64,000 nucleotides of DNA from a phage. The DNA lies in NCBI GenBank assembly GCA_022897995.1, contig GCA_022897995.1_4763.1. The stretch is one strand, 5' to 3'. A program made the position numbers and the translations under genes. The notes below the pieces were generated by a model. That model saw nothing but the letters and a program-made list of their open reading frames with translations, was not told the DNA's origin and searched no databases. Positions within the stretch are counted from its first letter, which is position 1. Each line of letters begins with the position of its first letter. Positions 84 through 59,391 of this stretch are shown piece by piece.

Positions 84-3000
84 TAATTTTCCTCTGTGTC
101 GGATTCTTCGGATCTCGTGGATTTCCTATATTATCCTTCAACCGTTTATCCACGAGTTCACGGAACATAGAGAACGTTACCGCTGATTGGTCAAACAATG
201 GACTCATATCAAACCGACGTTCGCTTGCTTTCAGACCGTGGAATAGTTCGCTATTTTCCTGATCGTAATCAGGCGGTACAGGGAACTCTTCGCCAATTGT
301 CGGTGACGTTAAGTATAATGGTTTCCCTGTTAGCGGGTCAATCTTAATATTTCCATCAACATCAAGGTCAGCAACACGATCAGGATACACTCTAGGTAAT
401 CCGCTGTCAAACTTATAGTTTTTAAGAGTTCTGATTATAGTTTCTACGTGTCTCATACTTAACCCGCTATTAATAAACATTGTAAGAAGAGTAACACCTA
501 TGAAACCAAAACCTACAGGATGAACAAATCTCATAACGTCATTTGCATATCTGGAAGTAGGTAAAGCACTCTTAATCTTCATGGTGTATTGGCTGCGTGA
601 GCGGTTGATATAGTCGATTGAACTACTTAACAACTCTTTACCACGTACACCAACAAGGATCATCCCCTCGAATGCAGTTTTCTCTGACTTGATCAATTGA
701 CCTTCTTCGAACCTTCCGATCAGGTTATGAATGGTTATTCGCCAGCGTAGGCGACCTCCTTCATATTCCCTTTCAAGATACGTCACGTTAGCCCGTCCGG
801 TTGGAGTATAGATCGTGCGTCCTACGATATCCTCATCAATATTCGTTGAACTAACTACAATATCATACTCTAGTCCGGCTTGTGATTCAACCTCAATTTC
901 TACATCTTCGTTATACAGTAACTTAAACAGGAACTTATAAGAAGCCTCCACACCCTTAGTGGAATAAAAATCTGATTTACGGGATTCAAAGAATCTTATT
1001 ACCGCATCTCGCTTGTTTTTGTCTGCATAGATATTTCGTTTGTTCATCTCTGACCAAAGATACTCATATGCATCTTGTTCTCGTGGATATTTGTTTTTAA
1101 TCAGATTTTTTAGTTTGTTATAGTATGTTCCTGAACCATCACTTAAGAATTGCAGATAATATTCAGAAAATTTTCTGAAATTTTCATTCTCCAGCAAGAA
1201 ACTGTCTGGTGTCATCTTATTCAATAAAGGCCGTAAATCTGGATCTTGTTCTCTGTCATAGTGAACTGGAACCCAGGGCACTTCACGAACCTGATTCTGT
1301 AATTCTGCAACAAGTGCTACATTTGTAGGCTTCCAATATACACCGACCTGATCGCGAACACGATAATTAAATTGATAAAATCCTATGATCTCCCCTGTGT
1401 TTTTATGGAACATCACACCAGATGCATATTGTTTGAATCCTTCAAATTTAACGTTGTTCAGATAACAGGTTACGGTCCCTTTATCATATACTTCACGGTT
1501 AATTCTGTTTTTATCAAGAATGCCGGAAGTATCAACTTCCTGAGTATAGACAACTTCTGGATAAACAACCAACGGGCGATTATCGTTTGTGATCCATACA
1601 CGAACACCGTTTCGACGCATCCATGTATAATCAGCCTCATTATAATACGCTTGCGATCCTAATTCCCAAATACGCAAATCATCATAACTTGCTCTGAAAG
1701 TAGTTTGATGTATTTTCTTATCAGTTAGATAAGTTGGCTCCTGAGAATATTTTACAGCTTCGCTTAATTCATATTTCGCGGCAGTTTCTGGATCAGGTAA
1801 AATGCTTTCGAAATGATGATTATAATGGCTTATGAATGCCTCATCACCATTGGTTGACATATTACTGAACCCATGCTGAATATATTCCCTTTCCTGCGGA
1901 GTGTTGCCAAATACTCGCTGAAAAGATAATCCATCGCTTTCAATCAAGTATACCCCCGCATCTTCTGACGGGACAACGTTTCCAGGTTTAGTCGGATCTT
2001 GATAACGCTGTTTAACTTCACCCGTAACAAATACAAGTAATTTTCCGTCAACAACATCCATTTTCTGAATAACAGCTTTGTCATTTCCTGTTACTCGGAT
2101 AATGTCAGGGTCAAATATCTTTTCCCCAAATGTAGGCGAACCCTGAACGGTATCAACCGGAGTATTCTTAAGGCGAATCCGGCGAATAACATCCTTAGCA
2201 CCAACCCACAAATAGTCATCACTACACGCCATAGCTTCGGCGTATTTTGTAGTGTCTCCTGTCAGTCTAGCAAGTACACCAAATACTTCAACATCAAACC
2301 CTAAATCGTTTTCGTCACCAACTTTTGCGAATGTGATAGTATCATCACTAAAGCGAACATCGTCCGCGCTCCATCGGGTATCGCTGGCTTGTCGTCCGTA
2401 AAAGATACGGTCATATCCTAAAACGTAAGTAGTAGTCTTAGACTGATAAACGCATGTACGGGAAACCGGATTGCCTACACGGTCGTTAAACGCTTTATAT
2501 GCTTTCCATGATTGACCTTTATCGTTAGACACCTTCACAATTGGCTGGAATCGCTCAAAAAGATATAGCACACCGTTCATTTCCGCTAACATGGTGCGGT
2601 TTATGTCAGTACAGACTTTTTCTATATGATCTTGGATCTCGTGAAAGTTTTCATCAACAATAATTTTGTTAGAAATATTTGTGATGTTTGCATATTCAGG
2701 ACTGAAAACAAAATCTTCCTGCATCAATGATGCTTGAATTAAATCAGTATTGAATTTAATATAATCACGATTATCATATGTAAACTTTTGCTTAACAAAT
2801 TCATTCGCCAGATTAAATTCTCGCATCGTTGAGAAGTTATAAGCATTGGTCTTGAATGTCTGAAACTCTTCGGTCTCAATCCATTTACTTTGTTCAAACC
2901 CTTCTGCGGCTACTGCTACACGAAATTTGTAATAATATTCTGGAAAAAGGTTTTTGTCCTCAAACCAGTTTTGGTCGGCAGTATATCCCAGGTTTACCCA

Positions 3001-3162
3001 GCTTAACTCATCGACGGGGATGATCTCCCCGTCTCGTGTTCTGGTTTCGGCTAACTCCACAAAATAAAAGAAGTTTTCGCCTACGTCATCCCATGTGATA
3101 TACGCCTGATTAGCAGACAATTTTTCTATTGTCAAGCTAGTTACACTAGGCGCTTTAATCAT
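76..3162 (-). CDS. 7: baseplate wedge protein gp7
   Basis: 1028-aa ORF (T4 gp7 is about 1032 aa) in the conserved 5-5.1-5.4-6-7-8 order. Confidence 0.85.
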   Translation of the reverse strand: MIKAPSVTSLTIEKLSANQAYITWDDVGENFFYFVELAETRTRDGEIIPVDELSWVNLGYTADQNWFEDKNLFPEYYYKFRVAVAAEGFEQSKWIETEEFQTFKTNAYNFSTMREFNLANEFVKQKFTYDNRDYIKFNTDLIQASLMQEDFVFSPEYANITNISNKIIVDENFHEIQDHIEKVCTDINRTMLAEMNGVLYLFERFQPIVKVSNDKGQSWKAYKAFNDRVGNPVSRTCVYQSKTTTYVLGYDRIFYGRQASDTRWSADDVRFSDDTITFAKVGDENDLGFDVEVFGVLARLTGDTTKYAEAMACSDDYLWVGAKDVIRRIRLKNTPVDTVQGSPTFGEKIFDPDIIRVTGNDKAVIQKMDVVDGKLLVFVTGEVKQRYQDPTKPGNVVPSEDAGVYLIESDGLSFQRVFGNTPQEREYIQHGFSNMSTNGDEAFISHYNHHFESILPDPETAAKYELSEAVKYSQEPTYLTDKKIHQTTFRASYDDLRIWELGSQAYYNEADYTWMRRNGVRVWITNDNRPLVVYPEVVYTQEVDTSGILDKNRINREVYDKGTVTCYLNNVKFEGFKQYASGVMFHKNTGEIIGFYQFNYRVRDQVGVYWKPTNVALVAELQNQVREVPWVPVHYDREQDPDLRPLLNKMTPDSFLLENENFRKFSEYYLQFLSDGSGTYYNKLKNLIKNKYPREQDAYEYLWSEMNKRNIYADKNKRDAVIRFFESRKSDFYSTKGVEASYKFLFKLLYNEDVEIEVESQAGLEYDIVVSSTNIDEDIVGRTIYTPTGRANVTYLEREYEGGRLRWRITIHNLIGRFEEGQLIKSEKTAFEGMILVGVRGKELLSSSIDYINRSRSQYTMKIKSALPTSRYANDVMRFVHPVGFGFIGVTLLTMFINSGLSMRHVETIIRTLKNYKFDSGLPRVYPDRVADLDVDGNIKIDPLTGKPLYLTSPTIGEEFPVPPDYDQENSELFHGLKASERRFDMSPLFDQSAVTFSMFRELVDKRLKDNIGNPRDPKNPTQRKING

Positions 3163-5063
3163 TGAGCAATTGCCTCCAGACTAATAGTTGTGTACTGAGG
3201 ACGGAGATCGTTTTCAAACACGATCAAAGAACCGTCTTTAGTAAAAATGTTATCAGCAATCGGTTTAGCTGTCAACTCAATATATGAACCAGTAAAGCGA
3301 TCGCTATTGATATTCAGTTTACCCAGATCCCATGAAATAAGGTCTTCATAATGCTGAACCTCTCCAACCTCAAAGTATAGGTCCGCACCGTCGATAACCT
3401 CTTTATCAAAATCAGTACCGGAATAATGCGGTAAAGCGATTGTAGAACCAACGGGGAAAGGTCCAACCAGCAATTTAGCTAAACCGGATTCTTTGTTCAT
3501 TTCTGTACTTACATAATGGATCGGGTATTGTTTACCGTCCTTTTCGAAGTTGAACGAACTAGACTTGATTCCGCTCTTATACTGGTTTAAAAACTTGATT
3601 CCAGCCATCGGTGCTTTATAGAAGTTGTCGATCTCTCGCACCATCTCGATTTCTGCACTAGAACCTATCACAGACACGTCAGCTTTGTCAATACGCGCAA
3701 GCATTTTAGACTTACTAAAGGTCTGGTTAAAAATTTCCACTTCGTCGGTATAATATGCATCAATCTGATCAATAACCGCACCGCGCAGCCACTGCTCTGA
3801 TTCTGATAAGTCATTGATTGAATAGGAAACTTTAATATTCTGTTTAATATACAGATAGTTAGGGTCAATGATGCTCGGTGTGATAGGGGCAAGATTATAT
3901 TTTGCCAGATAATCCCGCATATCTTCTTTTTGAACAGTTGTCAAGCGCAAGCCAGATTTAGGCTTAACAGCAACAAAAGCATAACCTGGTTTTTCTCGAT
4001 CGGTGAAACATTGTACCGCCTGAACAATACTACCAAATCGGCTGGAAACAAAAGCCTCATAGTCGGAAGCAGTTACACAACGACGCTGAGATTCACGCAT
4101 TACCGGAGCAAGTTCACGAATACGTTCGATTGATTCAGGATCACCGCCACCATCTGCGCCGACATAATCACGATCATTTGTCGGATTCTCAATAATTTTA
4201 ACAATAGAGATAGATGCAAGGGTATCCGCGTATGTGAAATTGACAGATCCGTTAGCTTCCGCGCCTTTAGTGCTGATATATTCGATAACAATATTTGCGC
4301 CCGTTGATGGTTTAAGACCACCAATATAATTTGCTTCCAGTGCACCGCCAGCAGCCGATAAAGTTGATTCACCTTCGCCAAAGAAAATTTCTGTATGTCC
4401 GTCTACGGTTTCGCGCATATAGAAAATATTACTAGCGCCAGTTGCATTAACAATACTTTCTCGTGTCCAGTCTTTCCATTCAGCACCATCTACCCACAAC
4501 TTAACCTGAGCGCGGTCAATATCTGGATCGCGGATCAGAATTTGTTTCTTCGGATCAAATAACATTTCTGTACGAACAATACGACCTTGTGCGACTTTAA
4601 GCATAGGCGTATATAAACCATTTGAACCTAAAACGCTCACAACGTCTTCTGTAGTGACAAATGGGTAAGAAGTCTGGCGATCCACACTTGCAATAAATTT
4701 AGTTCCTCGTGGGATTCGAATACTTGCCGGATTTCGTGGATGTGATACATGCAACATAATTGTAGTCGATGCACTAGTTTTACTTGCTGGCAAATATCCT
4801 AAATCTTGCGCGGCTTGAACAACTGAACTACGCTTAATTGCCGTTCTGATAAAAGATTCATATAGCGCGGCGTTAGCGAATTGCTGAATATAAAGGGTAT
4901 TATATGCGAGCAAGTCCATCAATACGTTAATACCAGCACCATTAAAATCAAAATCTTTAAATTCTTCCTGGTTTCTCATCCAGTCTGTTAATGCGCTTTT
5001 AATTTCATCGAATGTAGCAGCATTAAAAATATCAGGAATTTGTGTAATCTTTTGCTTTGTCAT
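3159..5063 (-). CDS. 6: baseplate wedge protein gp6
   Basis: 634-aa ORF between gp5.4 and gp7; start/stop overlaps typical of a late operon. Confidence 0.85.
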
Positions 5064-55598: not shown

Positions 55599-56800
55599 AT
55601 GTATTTTCTGTCATGTGAGCGAGTGGGTGATAAGATCTACGAGCGTTATATTGATGATGCTGGACAAGAACAAGAGCGTTACGTTGAATATACGCCAACT
55701 TTATTTCATCATGCCGCGCCTGGTATGGTTACGAATTATAAAGATATCTATGGCAAGCCTTGCATTGCTAAAAAATTCCCATCTATGAACGAGGCCAACA
55801 AATGGCGTAAAAAGATGGGAGAAATGGGGCAAGAGGCGCTAGGGATGGATGATTTTATCATCTCCTATCTGTCTGATACGTATAAAGGCGAGATTCGATA
55901 TGACCGAAATAAAATCCGTGTAGCATGGGTTGATATCGAGGTCACTGCCCCAGAATTTCCTAAACCAGAAGAAGCGAAATATCCTATCGATGCAATTACG
56001 CATTATGATTCCGTACATGATCGTTTCTTTGTATTTGACTTGAAAGGAAAAAACGGTGAAATCTGGGAAGTAAGCAAGTCTATTCTTCGACCTGATATTG
56101 TAGAGCGTGTTGTTTATAACGTCTATGACACAGAAGATGAATTGCTGTTAGAATACATCCGATTCTTTGAGGAAAACCGACCCGTTGGTTTCACTGGCTG
56201 GAACACAGAAACATTCGATATTCCATATATCATTAAACGTATCAGTAATAAGTTCGGAAGTAGAACCGCTAACCGTCTAAGCCCGTGCGGTAAGATTAAA
56301 TCCCGAATCTCGCAGGATGATTTTGGCAACGAGCGTGAAGCATTTACGATCATGGGGATCGAAAGCCTTGATTATATTGACCTGTACAAGAAATTTAGCT
56401 TTACGACTCAACCAACATATGCATTAGATTATGTTGCTGAATATGAGACAGGAATCGGTAAGGTTGATTATGATGGTCCGTTAAAGAAATTGCGTGATGA
56501 CAACCATCAACTTTACATCGATTATAACATCGGCGACGTTGATCGTGTGCTGGCGATTGATAAAAAGCGTGGATTTATCGATCTTGTGTATAGTCTATGT
56601 TTCTATGCAAAGATTAAATTTAACCATGTTTATAACCCGATGAAAGTATGGGATGCTATTATCTTCGGATCTCTGAAAGCTGAGGGTAAAGTAGTACCGG
56701 AAAATAAGATACAGCCTAAGCAGACTTATCCGGGCGCATTCGTAAAAGAACCTGTGCCGAATGCTTACCGTTGGATGATGAGCTTTGACCTTACTTCCCT
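55599..56800 (+). CDS. 43: DNA polymerase gp43, exon 1
   Basis: MYFLSCERVGDKIYERYIDD... through ...MMSFDLTSL; reading frame terminates 2 codons after the motif-A DLTSL; exon inferred to end at the T at 56800. Confidence 0.85.
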
Positions 56801-57914
56801 AAACTGATATGGGGCTTTCACTGGTGACAGTGATCGAATAACCTGCTTAATTGCTGGGAAATCTCTAAGGAGACAATCAGCAGCAGTTGCATTTTGAGCT
56901 AACGTGTCTTATAATGTATATAGATATTGATATACATTGGAGGCGCGAGATGAAAGACATTTTAAGAAAGTACGAAATACATAACGAGGAAGCATTAAAC
57001 GACTACATTAAACTGGTGTCTAATCCGTATCAGGGTGAAGAATATTCCGAGGTGCATCATATATGCCCGAAGTCAATGTTCCCGGAATATCGGTTAGATA
57101 AATGGAATCTTGTTAGGCTTAAGTTTGAAGACCACGTCGAGGCACATCGGTTATTGTGCTTAATATTCAATAACGGTGAATGCAAGAGAGCATATGCTTT
57201 CATCTCTAGAGGATCTTATGACGATAAAGTGAAGGCGTTAACCAAAGATGCATTCGCTGGAGACAATAACCCAGCCAAGCGAGAGGAAGTTAGACTGAAA
57301 ATATCCGAAAACAAGACCGGAAAAGCCAGAACCGATATGAGCGGAAAGAAATATTTCGGGGCTGATGAGGACACTATACGAAAAGGTCTTGATTCTATGG
57401 CAGAAAAGCTAAAGAATACTGTTATCGTTAAGGATAAGGAAGGAAATCGGTTTAGAGTTAGTTGTGATGATCCTAGATATGTTTCCGGTGAGTTGGTATC
57501 ATTTAATACTGGCGAGAAACGCGAAAATTCAGCGTCTAAACGACCGGAAGTTATGAGTAAAATAATGTCAAAACGTAATGAAACTTATGCTAAATTTGCA
57601 AGTTTCACATTTGATGAAATGGTGAATTTTCTTGTTGAAGCACACAATTCAGGAAAAGAGATTTTTGGTAAGAAGAAACCTTTTGCTAAGAATTATAGCG
57701 GATACTGTAAGAGAACACCGTTTGATCAAAATGAGCTTAAAGATGCAGTTGTTCAACGACTATCGAAAGGGTAACGAACCGAGTAGAGTAGAATCAAGCG
57801 ATTCGAAATGGCAGGATTCTCTATGAGAATGTGATATAGTCTGATCTACATGGTGACATGTAGCAGTTCGCAAGAGAACGGGCGCGGGAGTAGCGAACCG
57901 CGCTGAACATAATG
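56801..57914 (+). other. group I self-splicing intron (td-like) interrupting gene 43
   Basis: Intervening 1114 nt; 5' exon ends in T and intron starts aaactgatatgggg (G-run can pair with exon CCCT as P1); 3' segment gatatagtctgatctacatggtgacatgtagcag...ctgaacataatg| resembles the T4 td intron 3' end; exons join in frame to give SLYPSIIRQVNISPETI. Confidence 0.75.
56950..57774 (+). CDS. intron-encoded HNH homing endonuclease
   Basis: ATG after GGAGGCGCGAG; HNH motif EVHHICPKS...HVEAH; Lys-rich repeated modules; lies wholly inside the intron. Confidence 0.75.
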   Translation: MKDILRKYEIHNEEALNDYIKLVSNPYQGEEYSEVHHICPKSMFPEYRLDKWNLVRLKFEDHVEAHRLLCLIFNNGECKRAYAFISRGSYDDKVKALTKDAFAGDNNPAKREEVRLKISENKTGKARTDMSGKKYFGADEDTIRKGLDSMAEKLKNTVIVKDKEGNRFRVSCDDPRYVSGELVSFNTGEKRENSASKRPEVMSKIMSKRNETYAKFASFTFDEMVNFLVEAHNSGKEIFGKKKPFAKNYSGYCKRTPFDQNELKDAVVQRLSKG

Positions 57915-59391
57915 GTATCCATCAATCATCCGTCAGGTTAACATTTCGCCGGAAACAATCGCCGGATCTTTTGATGCTGCACCGATGCACGAGTATATCA
58001 ATAAAACTGCACCACGTCCGAGTGATGAGTATTCTTGCTCGCCTAACGGATGGATGTATCGAAAAGATATTCATGGTATCGTACCGATTGAGATTAAAAA
58101 GGTATTCGATCAGCGTAAGCAGTACAAAAACATGATGTTGGCGTGTGATCGCAATGCTGAACTCTGTAAAGCGATTCTACACGATGAAAATCATGTTTAC
58201 GGGGGAACCATTAGCTATAGCGTTGAAGTTCGTCACGACTTCGATGAAGCGTTTAAATCTATGCTTTCGGAATTAAGCAAAGATGCCTTAGAGAAATTGC
58301 TGGAAGAATGTAAAGACGAGTCGATCTTGTGCAATACAAACCAGCTTTCTCGAAAAGTTTTGATCAACTCCCTTTATGGTGCGTTGGGGAATCCTAAATT
58401 CCGTTTTTATGATCTCCGTAACGCTAGTGCGATCACCTTGTTTGGTCAGCTTGCAATTCAGTGGATTGAGCGTAAGATTAACGAATACTTAAACGAGCTT
58501 TGCGGAACAACCGATTTTGCATATGTTCGTTATTGTGATACTGACTCCGTTTATGTGCTGGTTAACAATGTTGTTGATAAGGTTGGCGGGGAAGACCGTT
58601 TCGACGATACCGAAAAACTTGTTGACTTCCTTGATAATTTCGGTAAACATCGAATGGAACCTATTATCGACAAGGGATATCGCGAGTTATGCGAGTACAT
58701 GAACAACTATGAGCACTTGATGTTTATGGACCGCGAGGCAATTGCTGGTCCTCCGTTGAAATCTGCGGGTATCGGTGGATTCTGGACGGGTAAAAAACGC
58801 TATGCTCTTAATGTTTGGGATATGGAAGGAACGCGCTTTGCTGAGCCTAAGCTAAAAATCATGGGCTTGGAAACGCAACGTAGCTCCACCCCTAAAGCAT
58901 GTCAGAAATCACTGAAAGAATGTATTCGCCGTATGTTGCAGGAAGGTGAAGAGTCATTGCAGGAATATTACGGTATTTTTGAGCAAGAGTTTAGAAAACT
59001 TGACTATCTTGAGGTTGCTGCGGTATCATCTGCAAACAACCTACAGAAATACAGCGATTCAAACGGGTATCCGATTAAGGGTTGTCCGTATGCGGTTAAG
59101 AGTGTATTGTGCTATAATCGTAATGCTCGAAAATTCGGACTAGATCCGATTCGTGAGGGCGAGAAGGTTATGATTGTACCGCTTAAAGACCGAAATCCGT
59201 TTGGAGAAATCTGTTTTGGTTGGTTGTCCGGTACTCGTATTCCGCCAGAAATTGAATCAGAGGTGTTAAAGTGGTTGGACTGGCCTTTGTTGTTTAATAA
59301 GACTTTCGTCAAACCACTGGAGAACATTACCACGGCTGCAAAGCTGCAATATGAAAAGGTGGCATCGCTTACGGACCTGTTTGACATTTAA
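57915..59391 (+). CDS. 43: DNA polymerase gp43, exon 2
   Basis: Open frame upstream of the track ATG (57985) encodes YPSIIRQVNISPETIAGSFDAAP then MHEYINKTAPRPSDEYSCSPNGWMY..., continuous with T4 gp43; contains NSLYGALGN and YCDTDS polymerase motifs. Confidence 0.85.

Follow-up and report, generated by a model that had tools for sequence, protein, structure and literature searches.

A probable mobile group IA2 intron with a putative Mob-like HNH endonuclease gene in motif A of DNA polymerase gene 43 of an RB49-like Krischvirus

Gene 43 of this RB49-like Krischvirus, a coliphage related to T4, very probably hosts a mobile group IA2 intron, inserted after the second base of a leucine codon in motif A of the DNA polymerase. 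This reading comes from sequence comparisons of the window, by which we mean the whole stretch of phage DNA analysed (64,000 nucleotides of assembly GCA_022897995.1, contig GCA_022897995.1_4763.1). The element is of an ordinary, already reported kind of phage mobile intron, and the current understanding of group I introns is unchanged by it. Its practical value lies in annotation: in all public carrier genomes gene 43 is listed as two coding sequences (two separate 'DNA polymerase' entries in every GenBank record with the insert, the second starting from an internal ATG), and in no public genome carrying this insert did we find an intron annotation or an exon join. The main features are the following.

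55599-56800, plus strand: exon 1 of gp43, a PolB DNA polymerase (ORF list; Pfam DNA_pol_B_exo1, E=2.5e-16; colinear with RB49 gp43)
56801-57914, plus strand: predicted group IA2 intron with an ORF in the P6 loop (absent from five intron-less alleles; Rfam Intron_gpI; covariation)
56950-57774, plus strand: putative Mob-like HNH homing-endonuclease gene, 274 aa (motif and homology)
57915-59391, plus strand: exon 2 of gp43 (Pfam DNA_pol_B, E=5.6e-17; colinear with RB49 gp43)

Exon 1 ends in CT, the first two bases of the Leu401 codon of motif A (FDLTSL, followed after the insert by YPS), and its last base is T56800. The first-pass annotation had the gp43 frame stopping right after SFDLTSL and resuming about 1.1 kb downstream, and direct checking of the coordinates showed this to be exact. 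Read without splicing, the frame runs on as ...SFDLTSLN and stops at the TGA at 56805-56807; an in-frame TAA (57910-57912) lies just 5' of the resumed gp43 frame. Exon 2 opens with G57915, which completes the CTG leucine codon, and the frame downstream of it reads YPSIIRQVNISPETI. The insert between the exons measures 1114 nt (56801-57914). When the exons are joined, they encode a protein of 892 aa that aligns without gaps to the intron-less gp43 of RB49 (99.9% identity, one substitution), in line with the earlier claim that the two halves rejoin within the DxxSLYPS motif. On this alignment, the colinearity of the exons with RB49 gp43 cannot be due to chance. Moreover, five intron-less Krischvirus alleles (RB49, Skers, TB34, Sf20 and G2248) read uninterruptedly through the insertion site, so that the intron boundaries are independently fixed; the comparison with such alleles, which had been suggested as a check, gave exact boundaries. 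Across the site the RB49 gene reads TTAACAAGTCTGTATCCATC. The predicted ligated-exon sequence is ...ACTTCCCTG joined directly to TATCCATCA..., and the predicted tryptic peptide across the exon junction of spliced gp43 is WMMSFDLTSLYPSIIR.

The insert had been interpreted as a group I intron, and a search with the Rfam model Intron_gpI (RF00028) had been proposed as a way to examine this. That search proved a poor arbiter. At the gathering score (50 bits for Intron_gpI) Rfam gave no match in the whole window, and this intron scored 33.9 bits (E=1.3e-6). A score below gathering is uninformative, however, because the proven T4 nrdB intron also fails (35.7 bits) and the T4 td intron was missed entirely; among the other controls, the ORF-less introns of phages 25 and Aes120 scored 64 and 77 bits, respectively. 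ORF-bearing phage introns score poorly with Intron_gpI, and its threshold has no diagnostic value for them. An E-value Rfam scan of the whole window found this intron and no further ones. The shortened copy of the intron in Escherichia phage JSE, also a Krischvirus, scored 42.9 bits (E=1.4e-9), matching the model over its whole length (1-253) with P1-P9 correctly laid out, and we adopted the alignment based on it, which places P1-P6 at 56791-56884. The Rfam alignment made on the window itself was rejected; in it, the 5' half of the model was forced into the ORF, from 57603.

Covariation was assessed on 11 ORF-trimmed homologous introns, including those of T4 td, T4 nrdB and Aeromonas phage 25. 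In this alignment, which we built from the trimmed sequences with the structure taken from the window row, and which somewhat favours the unslid register for that reason, 83.6% of the cells were paired, as compared with 34-44% when the partners were slid. Pairs with changes on both sides numbered 39, against 13-23 in the slid controls, and the covariation score was 0.415, against 0.08-0.15; the observed values were reached by none of 500 shuffles. Covariation in the alignment thus supports a conserved group I core, with the P3-P8 and P4-P6 domains and the P3/P7 pseudoknot, and the group I interpretation gains from this, from the P1-P9 layout and from P7. The predicted RNA elements are:

56797-56814, plus strand: P1 (read from the sequence; Rfam alignment on the JSE copy; kept in same-site introns)
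56818-56833, plus strand: P2 hairpin of 6 bp with a GUGA loop (5/5 contiguous P2 pairs change on both sides in the alignment)
56842-56847, plus strand: P3 5' strand, partner 57810-57815 (93.9% of cells paired; 4/6 pairs with compensatory changes)
56852-56882, plus strand: P4 (56852-57/56877-82) around P5 (56862-65/56870-73), with a UAAG loop (Rfam alignment on the JSE copy; covariation)
56883-56895, plus strand: P6 5' strand, partner 57740-57752 (read from the sequence; compensatory differences relative to POP12)
57758-57762, plus strand: P7 5' strand GACUA, partner UAGUC at 57837-57841 (invariant in 11/11 aligned introns)
57769-57804, plus strand: P7.1 (57769-70/57779-80) and P7.2 (57791-95/57800-04), both 100% paired
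57810-57841, plus strand: P3 3' strand (57810-15), P8 (57816-21/57825-30), J8/7 and P7 3' strand (57837-41) (covariation)
57846-57914, plus strand: P9 (57846-63, GUGA loop), P9.1 (57866-79), P9.2 (57881-57904), tail GAACAUAAUG and ωG57914 (covariation, folding)

In P1, the exon bases CCCU (56797-56800) pair with GGGG (56811-56814) of the intron guide 5'-GAUAUGGGG-3', including a U56800·G56811 wobble; the exon-terminal T and the G-run that had been proposed to form P1 are accordingly both in place, and the CCCU/GGGG pairing is present in all the same-site introns compared. A candidate P10 is formed by GAUAU (56806-56810), adjacent to the P1 guide on its 5' side, with GUAUC of the 3' exon (57915-57919). 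Just 36% of the cells are paired in the P10 register across the 11-intron alignment, a weak conservation that is expected because the host genes differ. P7, the guanosine-binding helix, is pseudoknotted with P3 and identical to the P7 of T4 td and nrdB. P7.1 and P7.2 are the additional helices by which subgroup IA is defined. In P7.2, 3/5 pairs show compensatory changes, and P7.1 occurs in the variants GG/CC, GC/GC and GA/UC. P8 is paired in 89% of cells, with compensatory changes in 5/6 pairs, and the corresponding pairing of P9.1 and P9.2 is 89% and 84%. With P7.1/P7.2 predicted between P7 and the P3 3' strand, and with the P9.1/P9.2 extensions, the insert has the architecture of subgroup IA2. 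The intron ends in ...CTGAACATAATG, of which G57914 (ωG) is the last base, and G57915 follows; a CATGGTGACATG hairpin lies at 57849-57860, within the P9 stem (57846-57863). The first-pass annotation had likened both elements to the T4 td intron, accurately, as the 12-mer and the hairpin are indeed present there. Unconstrained minimum free energy folding of the ORF-trimmed intron, which we take as supportive only, recovered P1, P2, P5, P7, P9, P9.1 and P9.2 (z -3.0), but not the pseudoknotted P3/P8.

The HNH ORF that had been noted inside the insert was confirmed at 56950-57774 and encodes 274 aa. It is preceded by GGAGG (56941-56945), 4 nt 5' of its ATG, and its product carries the motif EVHHICPKS...NLVRL...H..AH, in which the HH...N...H...H residues are invariant among homologs down to 23% identity. 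The ORF matched phrog_12434 (E=1e-130) and T4 MobE (E=1e-7); Pfam, NCBIfam, and PDB sequence and profile searches gave no significant match. By motif and homology, the product is a putative Mob-like HNH endonuclease. Orthology with I-TevIII, considered on account of the nrdB-like core, was rejected, as the T4 I-TevIII relic, compared by eye, showed no visible similarity. The final 10 codons of the ORF (57745-57774) overlap the 3' strand of P6, J6/7, a strand of P7 and the start of P7.1. Upstream of the ORF lies one further element:

56903-56947, plus strand: predicted hairpin that pairs the endonuclease Shine-Dalgarno sequence GGAGG (ΔG -19.3 kcal/mol, z -4.1, 0/200 shuffles as stable)

The 5' arm of this hairpin contains a late-promoter-like TATAATGT/TATAGATA. 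Searches of the insert for sigma-70 promoters and terminators returned nothing beyond the shuffle expectation.

The intron is patchily distributed within a genus whose members are 97% identical, and its carriers are plaque-forming isolates from several countries. An intact endonuclease ORF is found in 11 distinct phage isolates (12 database records). Relative to JK32, the ribozyme parts of the intron differ at 1/319 nt and the exons together with the ORF at 89/3474 nt; the ORF accounts for 24 nucleotide differences, mostly synonymous, which result in 3 amino acid differences. JSE carries the same intron at the same site, and Petrov et al. (2010, Virol J 7:292, PMC2993671) have already described that element as a putative group I intron whose endonuclease gene is truncated. 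Positions 56801-56950 are identical in JSE, and a single base difference, at 57900, was seen in the remaining ribozyme core. Unlike the window phage, with its intact 274-aa ORF, JSE has a 650-nt deletion in the endonuclease ORF (window positions 57039-57688) that leaves a frameshifted relic and a 464-nt intron, which fits the decay stage of a homing cycle. Only this decayed form has been described in the literature, and the window supplies the form with an intact endonuclease. Three stages of the homing cycle, intron-less (RB49), intact (this phage) and decayed (JSE), are therefore found side by side in a single genus of about 97% identity, which makes a convenient natural system for the study of homing, co-conversion tracts and endonuclease decay.

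The exon sequence next to the insertion site differs between the two kinds of allele. The 5' flank reads CTT ACT TCC CT in 4/4 intron-containing alleles and (T/C)TA ACA AGT CT in 5/5 intron-less ones, and the recoding of AGT to TCC strengthens the P1 pairing. This pattern fits co-conversion of the flank together with P1 pairing. An intron-less allele with the recoded flank, as would be left by intron loss or be found in a donor-type exon, had no exact match in IMG/VR. The RB49-type junction was likewise missing from IMG/VR, where one Krischvirus genome was found; the database thus simply has few Krischvirus genomes.

Taken together, these observations suggest the following sequence of events. 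Gene 43 would be transcribed as a single pre-mRNA in which the intron adopts a ribozyme core made up of the P3-P8 and P4-P6 domains, and the guide would pair first with CCCU at the end of exon 1 and, at a later step, with GUAUC at the beginning of exon 2 (P10). Exogenous guanosine in P7 would attack after U56800; the 3'-OH of exon 1, once freed, would attack after ωG57914, and the ligated mRNA would yield one full-length 892-aa polymerase. In mixed infections, gene 43 alleles that lack the intron would be cleaved by the Mob-like HNH enzyme close to the motif A codons, and recombinational repair would then transfer the intron to the recipient together with flanking exon bases. The hairpin over the ribosome-binding site probably delays translation of the endonuclease, as the analogy with T4 I-TevI and mobE suggests. 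It also seems possible, although we offer this tentatively and consider it rather doubtful, that the ribozyme and the ORF are functionally interlocked as a temporal switch, and that the unit moved between Straboviridae and Ackermannviridae through homing into the conserved motif A codons. A ribosome that reached the end of the endonuclease ORF would disrupt the fold of the catalytic core, so that late translation of the endonuclease and splicing of the early polymerase mRNA would be mutually exclusive for each transcript, and the switch would protect the supply of polymerase.

The intron might splice and yet carry an endonuclease that is not a working homing enzyme, being inactive, a nickase or a repressor only, with the intron maintained by vertical descent or mobilised in trans. 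The JSE intron has persisted despite the loss of its ORF, trans-mobilisation of endonuclease-less introns is documented in T4 relatives (PMC2993671), and the protein is recognised by no curated HNH model. Against this, the ORF is intact in all 11 isolates mentioned above, its divergence from JK32 is mostly synonymous, the catalytic residues are invariant in distant homologs, and the patchy occurrence of the intron is linked to the recoded flank. We regard such an endonuclease as improbable, and a functional homing enzyme as the likelier product of the ORF.

Much less probable is that the insert stays in the RNA and that gp43 is made as two polypeptides which assemble into an active enzyme: an N-terminal piece of 402 aa ending in ...SFDLTSLN and a C-terminal piece of 468 aa starting at the ATG at 57985, with the ORF as a free-standing endonuclease gene between them. 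Every GenBank record with the insert does annotate two 'DNA polymerase' coding sequences, and split PolB enzymes are known among T4 relatives (PMC2988022), with gp43A/gp43B of Aeromonas phages 44RR and 25 and the mobE-split NrdA of Aeh1 as parallels. However, the ATG in question, the first in frame in exon 2, lies 24 codons past the junction and has no Shine-Dalgarno sequence, and starting there would forfeit YPSIIRQVNISPETIAGSFDAAP, including the Y-P-S of motif A. Joining the exons, moreover, restores the frame without adding or dropping a residue, bases of the 5' exon are recoded to match the intron guide, and the non-coding or overlapping RNA (319 nt) shows both stronger conservation than the coding sequence and the covariation of a group I ribozyme. 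Two polypeptides, which the first-pass annotation had named as the alternative, are thus very unlikely, and splicing of a group IA2 intron is the reading we retain. That the insert is a chance likeness or a degenerate, non-splicing relic that has left a polymerase pseudogene has a negligible probability: the Rfam scores do fall under gathering, but covariation and ribozyme conservation argue against decay, gp43 is an essential core replication gene, and the carriers are plaque-forming isolates that come from several countries.

The first-pass annotation had considered an intron at the polymerase active site to be unusual, a view that is not supported, given precedents in JSE (PMC2993671), in Aeromonas phage 25 and in LIMEstone, whose polymerase intron I-LimII is documented (Adriaenssens et al. 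2012, PMC3296691). I-LimII is tabulated there as GIY-YIG; its sequence shows an HNH motif. The same motif A codon holds homologous intron-endonuclease units in POP12, vB_VmeM-32, LIMEstone1, Kuttervirus and nACB2, that is, in phages of Pectobacterium, Vibrio, Dickeya, Salmonella and Acinetobacter, and the same-site units span two phage families and six host genera. In I-LimII of LIMEstone1, in Kuttervirus/Aglimvirinae and in POP12, vB_VmeM-32 and nACB2, the insertion likewise follows base 2 of the leucine codon in D-x-x-S/A-L-Y-P-S/H; the introns of POP12, vB_VmeM-32 and nACB2 are unannotated. This group has in common with the window intron a homologous IA2 core, the CCCU/GGGG P1 and a homologous HNH ORF that lies in the P6 loop and ends in ..VQRLSK, but it belongs to other phage families and hosts, its endonucleases are 35-57% identical, and its P2, P7.1, P8 and P9.1 differ in length. 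In the Ackermannviridae, the polymerase gene contains another intron, I-LimIII, farther downstream. The codon shared across these phages clearly illustrates how homing endonucleases target invariant catalytic codons. SPO1-like Bacillus phages have polymerase introns as well.

The T4 nrdB and td introns are classical self-splicing IA2 introns. The introns of T4 nrdB (I-TevIII) and td (I-TevI) have the same IA2 architecture as the window intron, with P7.1/P7.2, an ORF in the P6 loop, P9.1/P9.2 and an identical P7; they reside in different host genes, and I-TevI, a GIY-YIG enzyme, is unrelated to the window endonuclease. The window intron has the 3' tail CUGAACAUAAUG and the GUGA hairpin of P9 in common with td, whereas in the P9.1-P9.2 region it is closest to nrdB. 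The earlier description as td-like holds for the subgroup, IA2, but not for the core, which is 54% identical to that of td, as compared with 63% for T4 nrdB and 71-73% for the same-site introns of POP12, Limestonevirus and Kuttervirus. T4 I-TevI also has an RBS-occluding hairpin and a late-promoter-like element 5' of its ORF, as in the window (PMC2988022). Finally, among T4 relatives, Aeromonas phage 25/Aes120 also has a group IA2 intron in its gene 43 (25.g43B), with a core that is about 60% identical. This intron lies at another site, in motif B (after NSLYGAL), has no internal ORF and is found in a host gene split into 43A and 43B; as related in PMC2993671, its self-splicing was shown experimentally, and its mobilisation is attributed to a neighbouring free-standing endonuclease (Petrov et al. 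2010, J Mol Biol).

The gene for the PolB DNA polymerase, gp43, is interrupted by a precisely bounded insert. The gp43 frame ends ...MSFDLTSLN followed by TGA (56805-56807), and an open frame reading YPSIIRQVNISPETI... is found from 57915-57916, immediately 3' of an in-frame TAA (57910-57912). Alignment with the intron-less allele of RB49, a comparison suggested by the first-pass annotation, gave an exact insertion of 1114 nt at 56801-57914, with T56800 closing exon 1 and G57915 opening exon 2. When 55599-56800 and 57915-59391 are joined, the 892-residue product aligns gap-free with the 892-residue RB49 gp43 at 99.9% identity, V158S being the sole substitution. The first-pass annotation had described a frame that stops after SFDLTSL and resumes downstream, an exon ending in T, a G-run, a 3' end followed by G, a hairpin and an internal ORF, and its observation is confirmed in all details: the GGGG run lies at 56811-14, the insert ends ...CTGAACATAATG, the CATGGTGACATG hairpin is present, and an ORF of 274 codons occupies 56950-57774, with GGAGG 4 nt 5' of its ATG. 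The likeness to the T4 td intron also held, as both the 3' end and the hairpin were located in the extracted td sequence.

With the Rfam Intron_gpI model, no match was found on the window at the curated threshold (gathering score 50 bits); by E-value, the window scored 33.9 bits (E=1.3e-6), with the 5' half of the model forced into the ORF. The insert of Escherichia phage JSE, a 464-nt version with a 650-nt deletion within the ORF (window 57039-57688), aligned end-to-end (model positions 1-253, 42.9 bits, E=1.4e-9), also below the gathering score. The P1-P9 layout for which the first-pass annotation proposed a check was recovered on the JSE copy; the curated score was reached by neither sequence. 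In the JSE alignment the 5' segment accounts for P1-P6 and the 3' segment for P7, P3', P8, P7' and P9, with a 216-nt insertion in the P6 loop. The threshold was calibrated on six related phage introns, with and without an internal ORF. Those without one scored 77.4 bits (Aes120) and 64.2 bits (Aeromonas phage 25, for which self-splicing has been demonstrated experimentally; PMC2993671). The classical self-splicing T4 nrdB intron, which carries a truncated I-TevIII relic, scored 35.7 bits and the ORF-bearing LIMEstone1 intron 29.2 bits; the T4 td and POP12 introns, both with an internal ORF, were not detected. A sub-threshold score is thus normal for ORF-bearing phage introns, and the failure of the window to reach the threshold is no evidence against its intron. 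The helices were derived from the JSE Rfam alignment and the sequence.

Elements of the intron, in window coordinates
P1: 56797-800 with 56811-14; U56800·G56811 at the splice site
P2: 56818-23 with 56828-33; GUGA loop
P3: 56842-47 with 57810-15
P4: 56852-57 with 56877-82
P5: 56862-65 with 56870-73
P6: 56883-95 with 57740-52; loop holds the ORF
P7: 57758-62 with 57837-41
P7.1: 57769-70 with 57779-80
P7.2: 57791-95 with 57800-04
P8: 57816-21 with 57825-30
P9: 57846-52 with 57857-63; GUGA loop
P9.1: 57866-69 with 57876-79
P9.2: 57881-87 with 57898-904
3' tail: GAACAUAAUG and ωG; final base G57914
P10: 57915-19 with 56806-10; immediately 5' of the P1 guide

Because P7.1 and P7.2 lie between P7 and P3', the intron belongs to subgroup IA2, as do the T4 introns. 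Covariation was assessed in an alignment of 11 introns with the ORF loops cut out (window, POP12, LIMEstone1, KE30, RPN242, XF4, T4 nrdB, T4 td, Aeromonas phage 25, Aes120 and A7_1). Standard pairs filled 83.6% of cells, against 34-44% when partners were slid by 1-3 columns, pairs changed on both sides numbered 39/75 against 13-23, and the covariation score was 0.415 against 0.08-0.15; the structure was taken from one alignment row, which somewhat favours the true register, but the margin is large all the same. None of 500 shuffles attained any observed measure. Several compensatory pairs were found in each of P3, P7.1, P7.2, P8, P9, P9.1 and P9.2; P7 did not vary and matches the P7 of td and nrdB exactly. 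Free-energy folding of the ORF-trimmed intron recovered the non-pseudoknotted helices (z -3.0). Relative to JK32, the ribozyme parts differ at 1/319 positions, and the exons plus ORF at 89/3474.

The ORF had no match in Pfam or NCBIfam (NUMOD3, E=0.27). In PHROGs it matched phrog_12434 'HNH endonuclease' (E=1e-130) and phrog_655 'homing endonuclease' (E=3e-19), and BLASTP aligned it with T4 MobE, an H-N-H family homing endonuclease, across EYSEVHHICPKSM...NLVRLKFEDHVEAHRLL (E=1e-7). Among 43 homologs, aligned down to 23% identity, E34, H36, H37, P40, H62 and H66 were invariant and N53 nearly so. On motif and homology, we accept the product as a putative Mob-like HNH endonuclease. The T4 I-TevIII relic, considered as a relative, showed no visible similarity. 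The ORF is under purifying selection, with 24 nucleotide but 3 amino-acid differences from JK32. We conclude that the insert is real and that its reading as a group I intron with an HNH ORF, predicted to splice, is correct.

Were gene 43 left unspliced and the polymerase made as two polypeptides, the N-terminal fragment would stop within motif A. In exon 2 an in-frame ATG first occurs 24 codons in, at 57985, which database annotators use as the start; it lacks a Shine-Dalgarno sequence, and the C-terminal fragment would be devoid of YPSIIRQVNISPETIAGSFDAAP. Together with the exact in-frame rejoining of the exons and a ribozyme under selection, these losses make the two-polypeptide reading very unlikely. 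The GenBank records inspected held neither an intron annotation nor joined gene 43 exons. Those with the intron (MK962753, OR167180, EU863408 and others) carry two independent 'DNA polymerase' CDS each, the second beginning at the internal ATG and dropping 23 conserved residues. In intron-less Escherichia phage vB_Eco_TB34 (1-986 of the record stretch), a 'DNA Primase' CDS overlaps the 'DNA Polymerase' CDS within gene 43, which probably reflects a frameshift or faulty annotation.

Two further features concern the ORF ends. Its final ten codons (57745-57774, ..AVVQRLSKG*) double as the P6 3' strand, J6/7, the P7 5' strand and the start of P7.1, and the VVQRLSK peptide is kept in homologs down to 42% identity, so that RNA and protein both constrain this segment. 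Upstream, the GGAGG Shine-Dalgarno sequence of the endonuclease is paired with bases 5' of it in a stable hairpin at 56903-56947 (ΔG -19.3 kcal/mol, z -4.1), whose 5' arm and loop contain TATAATGT/TATAGATA, resembling a T4-type late promoter. An exact TATAAATA occurs at the equivalent place in JK32 and POP12. The arrangement looks like the I-TevI/mobE-style delay, in which endonuclease translation would await late transcripts starting within the hairpin.

The stretch 56300-58400 matches Krischvirus genomes (RB49-like T4 relatives), most closely vB_EcoM_G2494 (99.1% identity), and the order gp62, regA, gene 43, small ORF, uvsX is the same in RB49. The whole stretch is present in 12 of 73 matching phage records (phage ECD7 counted twice); JSE covers 69% of the query, and RB49 and most other records cover both flanks only (47%). 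The JSE deletion (2239-2240 of the JSE stretch) is clean and leaves the ribozyme core intact; one genus thus harbours the intron-less, the intact and the decayed stage of the homing cycle together.

The exon flank differs with intron presence. CTT ACT TCC CT precedes the intron in all four intron-containing alleles examined (window, JSE, JK32, MIZ4) and (T/C)TA ACA AGT CT stands there in all five intron-less ones (RB49, Skers, TB34, Sf20, G2248), a perfect linkage across nine alleles that amounts to 5 or 6 synonymous differences in the 12 nt, or four codons, of 56789-56800, against a background of ~97% identity. Synonymous differences also occur in exon 2, at about +10 to +22, in 4/5 intron-less alleles. 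The CCCU paired with the GGGG guide comes from the TCC Ser codon; the GUCU of RB49 would be expected to pair more weakly. AGT cannot become TCC through single synonymous steps. Co-conversion, in which exon sequence arrived together with the intron, is the best reading of this change, which would also set intron-containing alleles apart from the presumed cleavage target.

In the literature searched, no paper combined 'Krischvirus' with 'intron'. The JSE intron was reported as putative by Petrov et al. (PMC2993671); the window carries it with an intact ORF. In the polymerase gene of LIMEstone1, two putative introns were named I-LimII and I-LimIII by Adriaenssens et al. (2012; PMC3296691). Introns at the same position occur in LIMEstone1 (I-LimII; Dickeya), Kuttervirus and Aglimvirinae phages (Salmonella, E. 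coli), Pectobacterium POP12, Vibrio vB_VmeM-32 and Acinetobacter nACB2, all inserted after base 2 of the Leu codon in D-x-x-S/A-L-Y-P-S/H; CCCU abutting the intron, with GGGG, is also found in POP12, vB_VmeM-32, Limestonevirus, Kuttervirus and nACB2. I-LimII is listed as GIY-YIG in Table 1 of PMC3296691, but its sequence contains ERHHILPQ...NIVNL...H..AH, an HNH motif, and aligns with the HNH ORF of the window. The polymerase genes of vB_VmeM-32 and the Ackermannviridae compared are annotated in at least three pieces each and have insertions beyond the motif A intron, for example an opposite-strand I-LimIII in both Limestonevirus and Kuttervirus; vB_VmeM-32 shows extra breaks as well. A related IA2 intron, whose P9.1-P9.2 closely resembles that of the window, lies at about 2430-3175 in Escherichia phage A7_1 (Vequintavirinae), flanked by a hypothetical CDS and one annotated 'DNA primase/helicase'. 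The endonuclease ORF on its plus strand has no annotation, and an opposite-strand CDS is called over the ribozyme core.

Catalytic-site codons of essential phage genes are characteristic homing endonuclease targets (PMC2988022). The first-pass annotation had thought an intron in the polymerase active site unusual; a documented lineage of mobile IA2 introns targets PolB motif A, and the insert, which belongs to it as a further member in intact form, is not an unusual novelty. The cores of the POP12 and Ackermannviridae introns, for which this was measured, are 71-73% identical to the window's, and the ORFs of the same-site introns are homologous to its ORF at 35-57% identity. In contrast, the experimentally studied intron of Aeromonas phage 25 sits in motif B, and identity is lower for the classical T4 introns (63% for nrdB, 54% for td).
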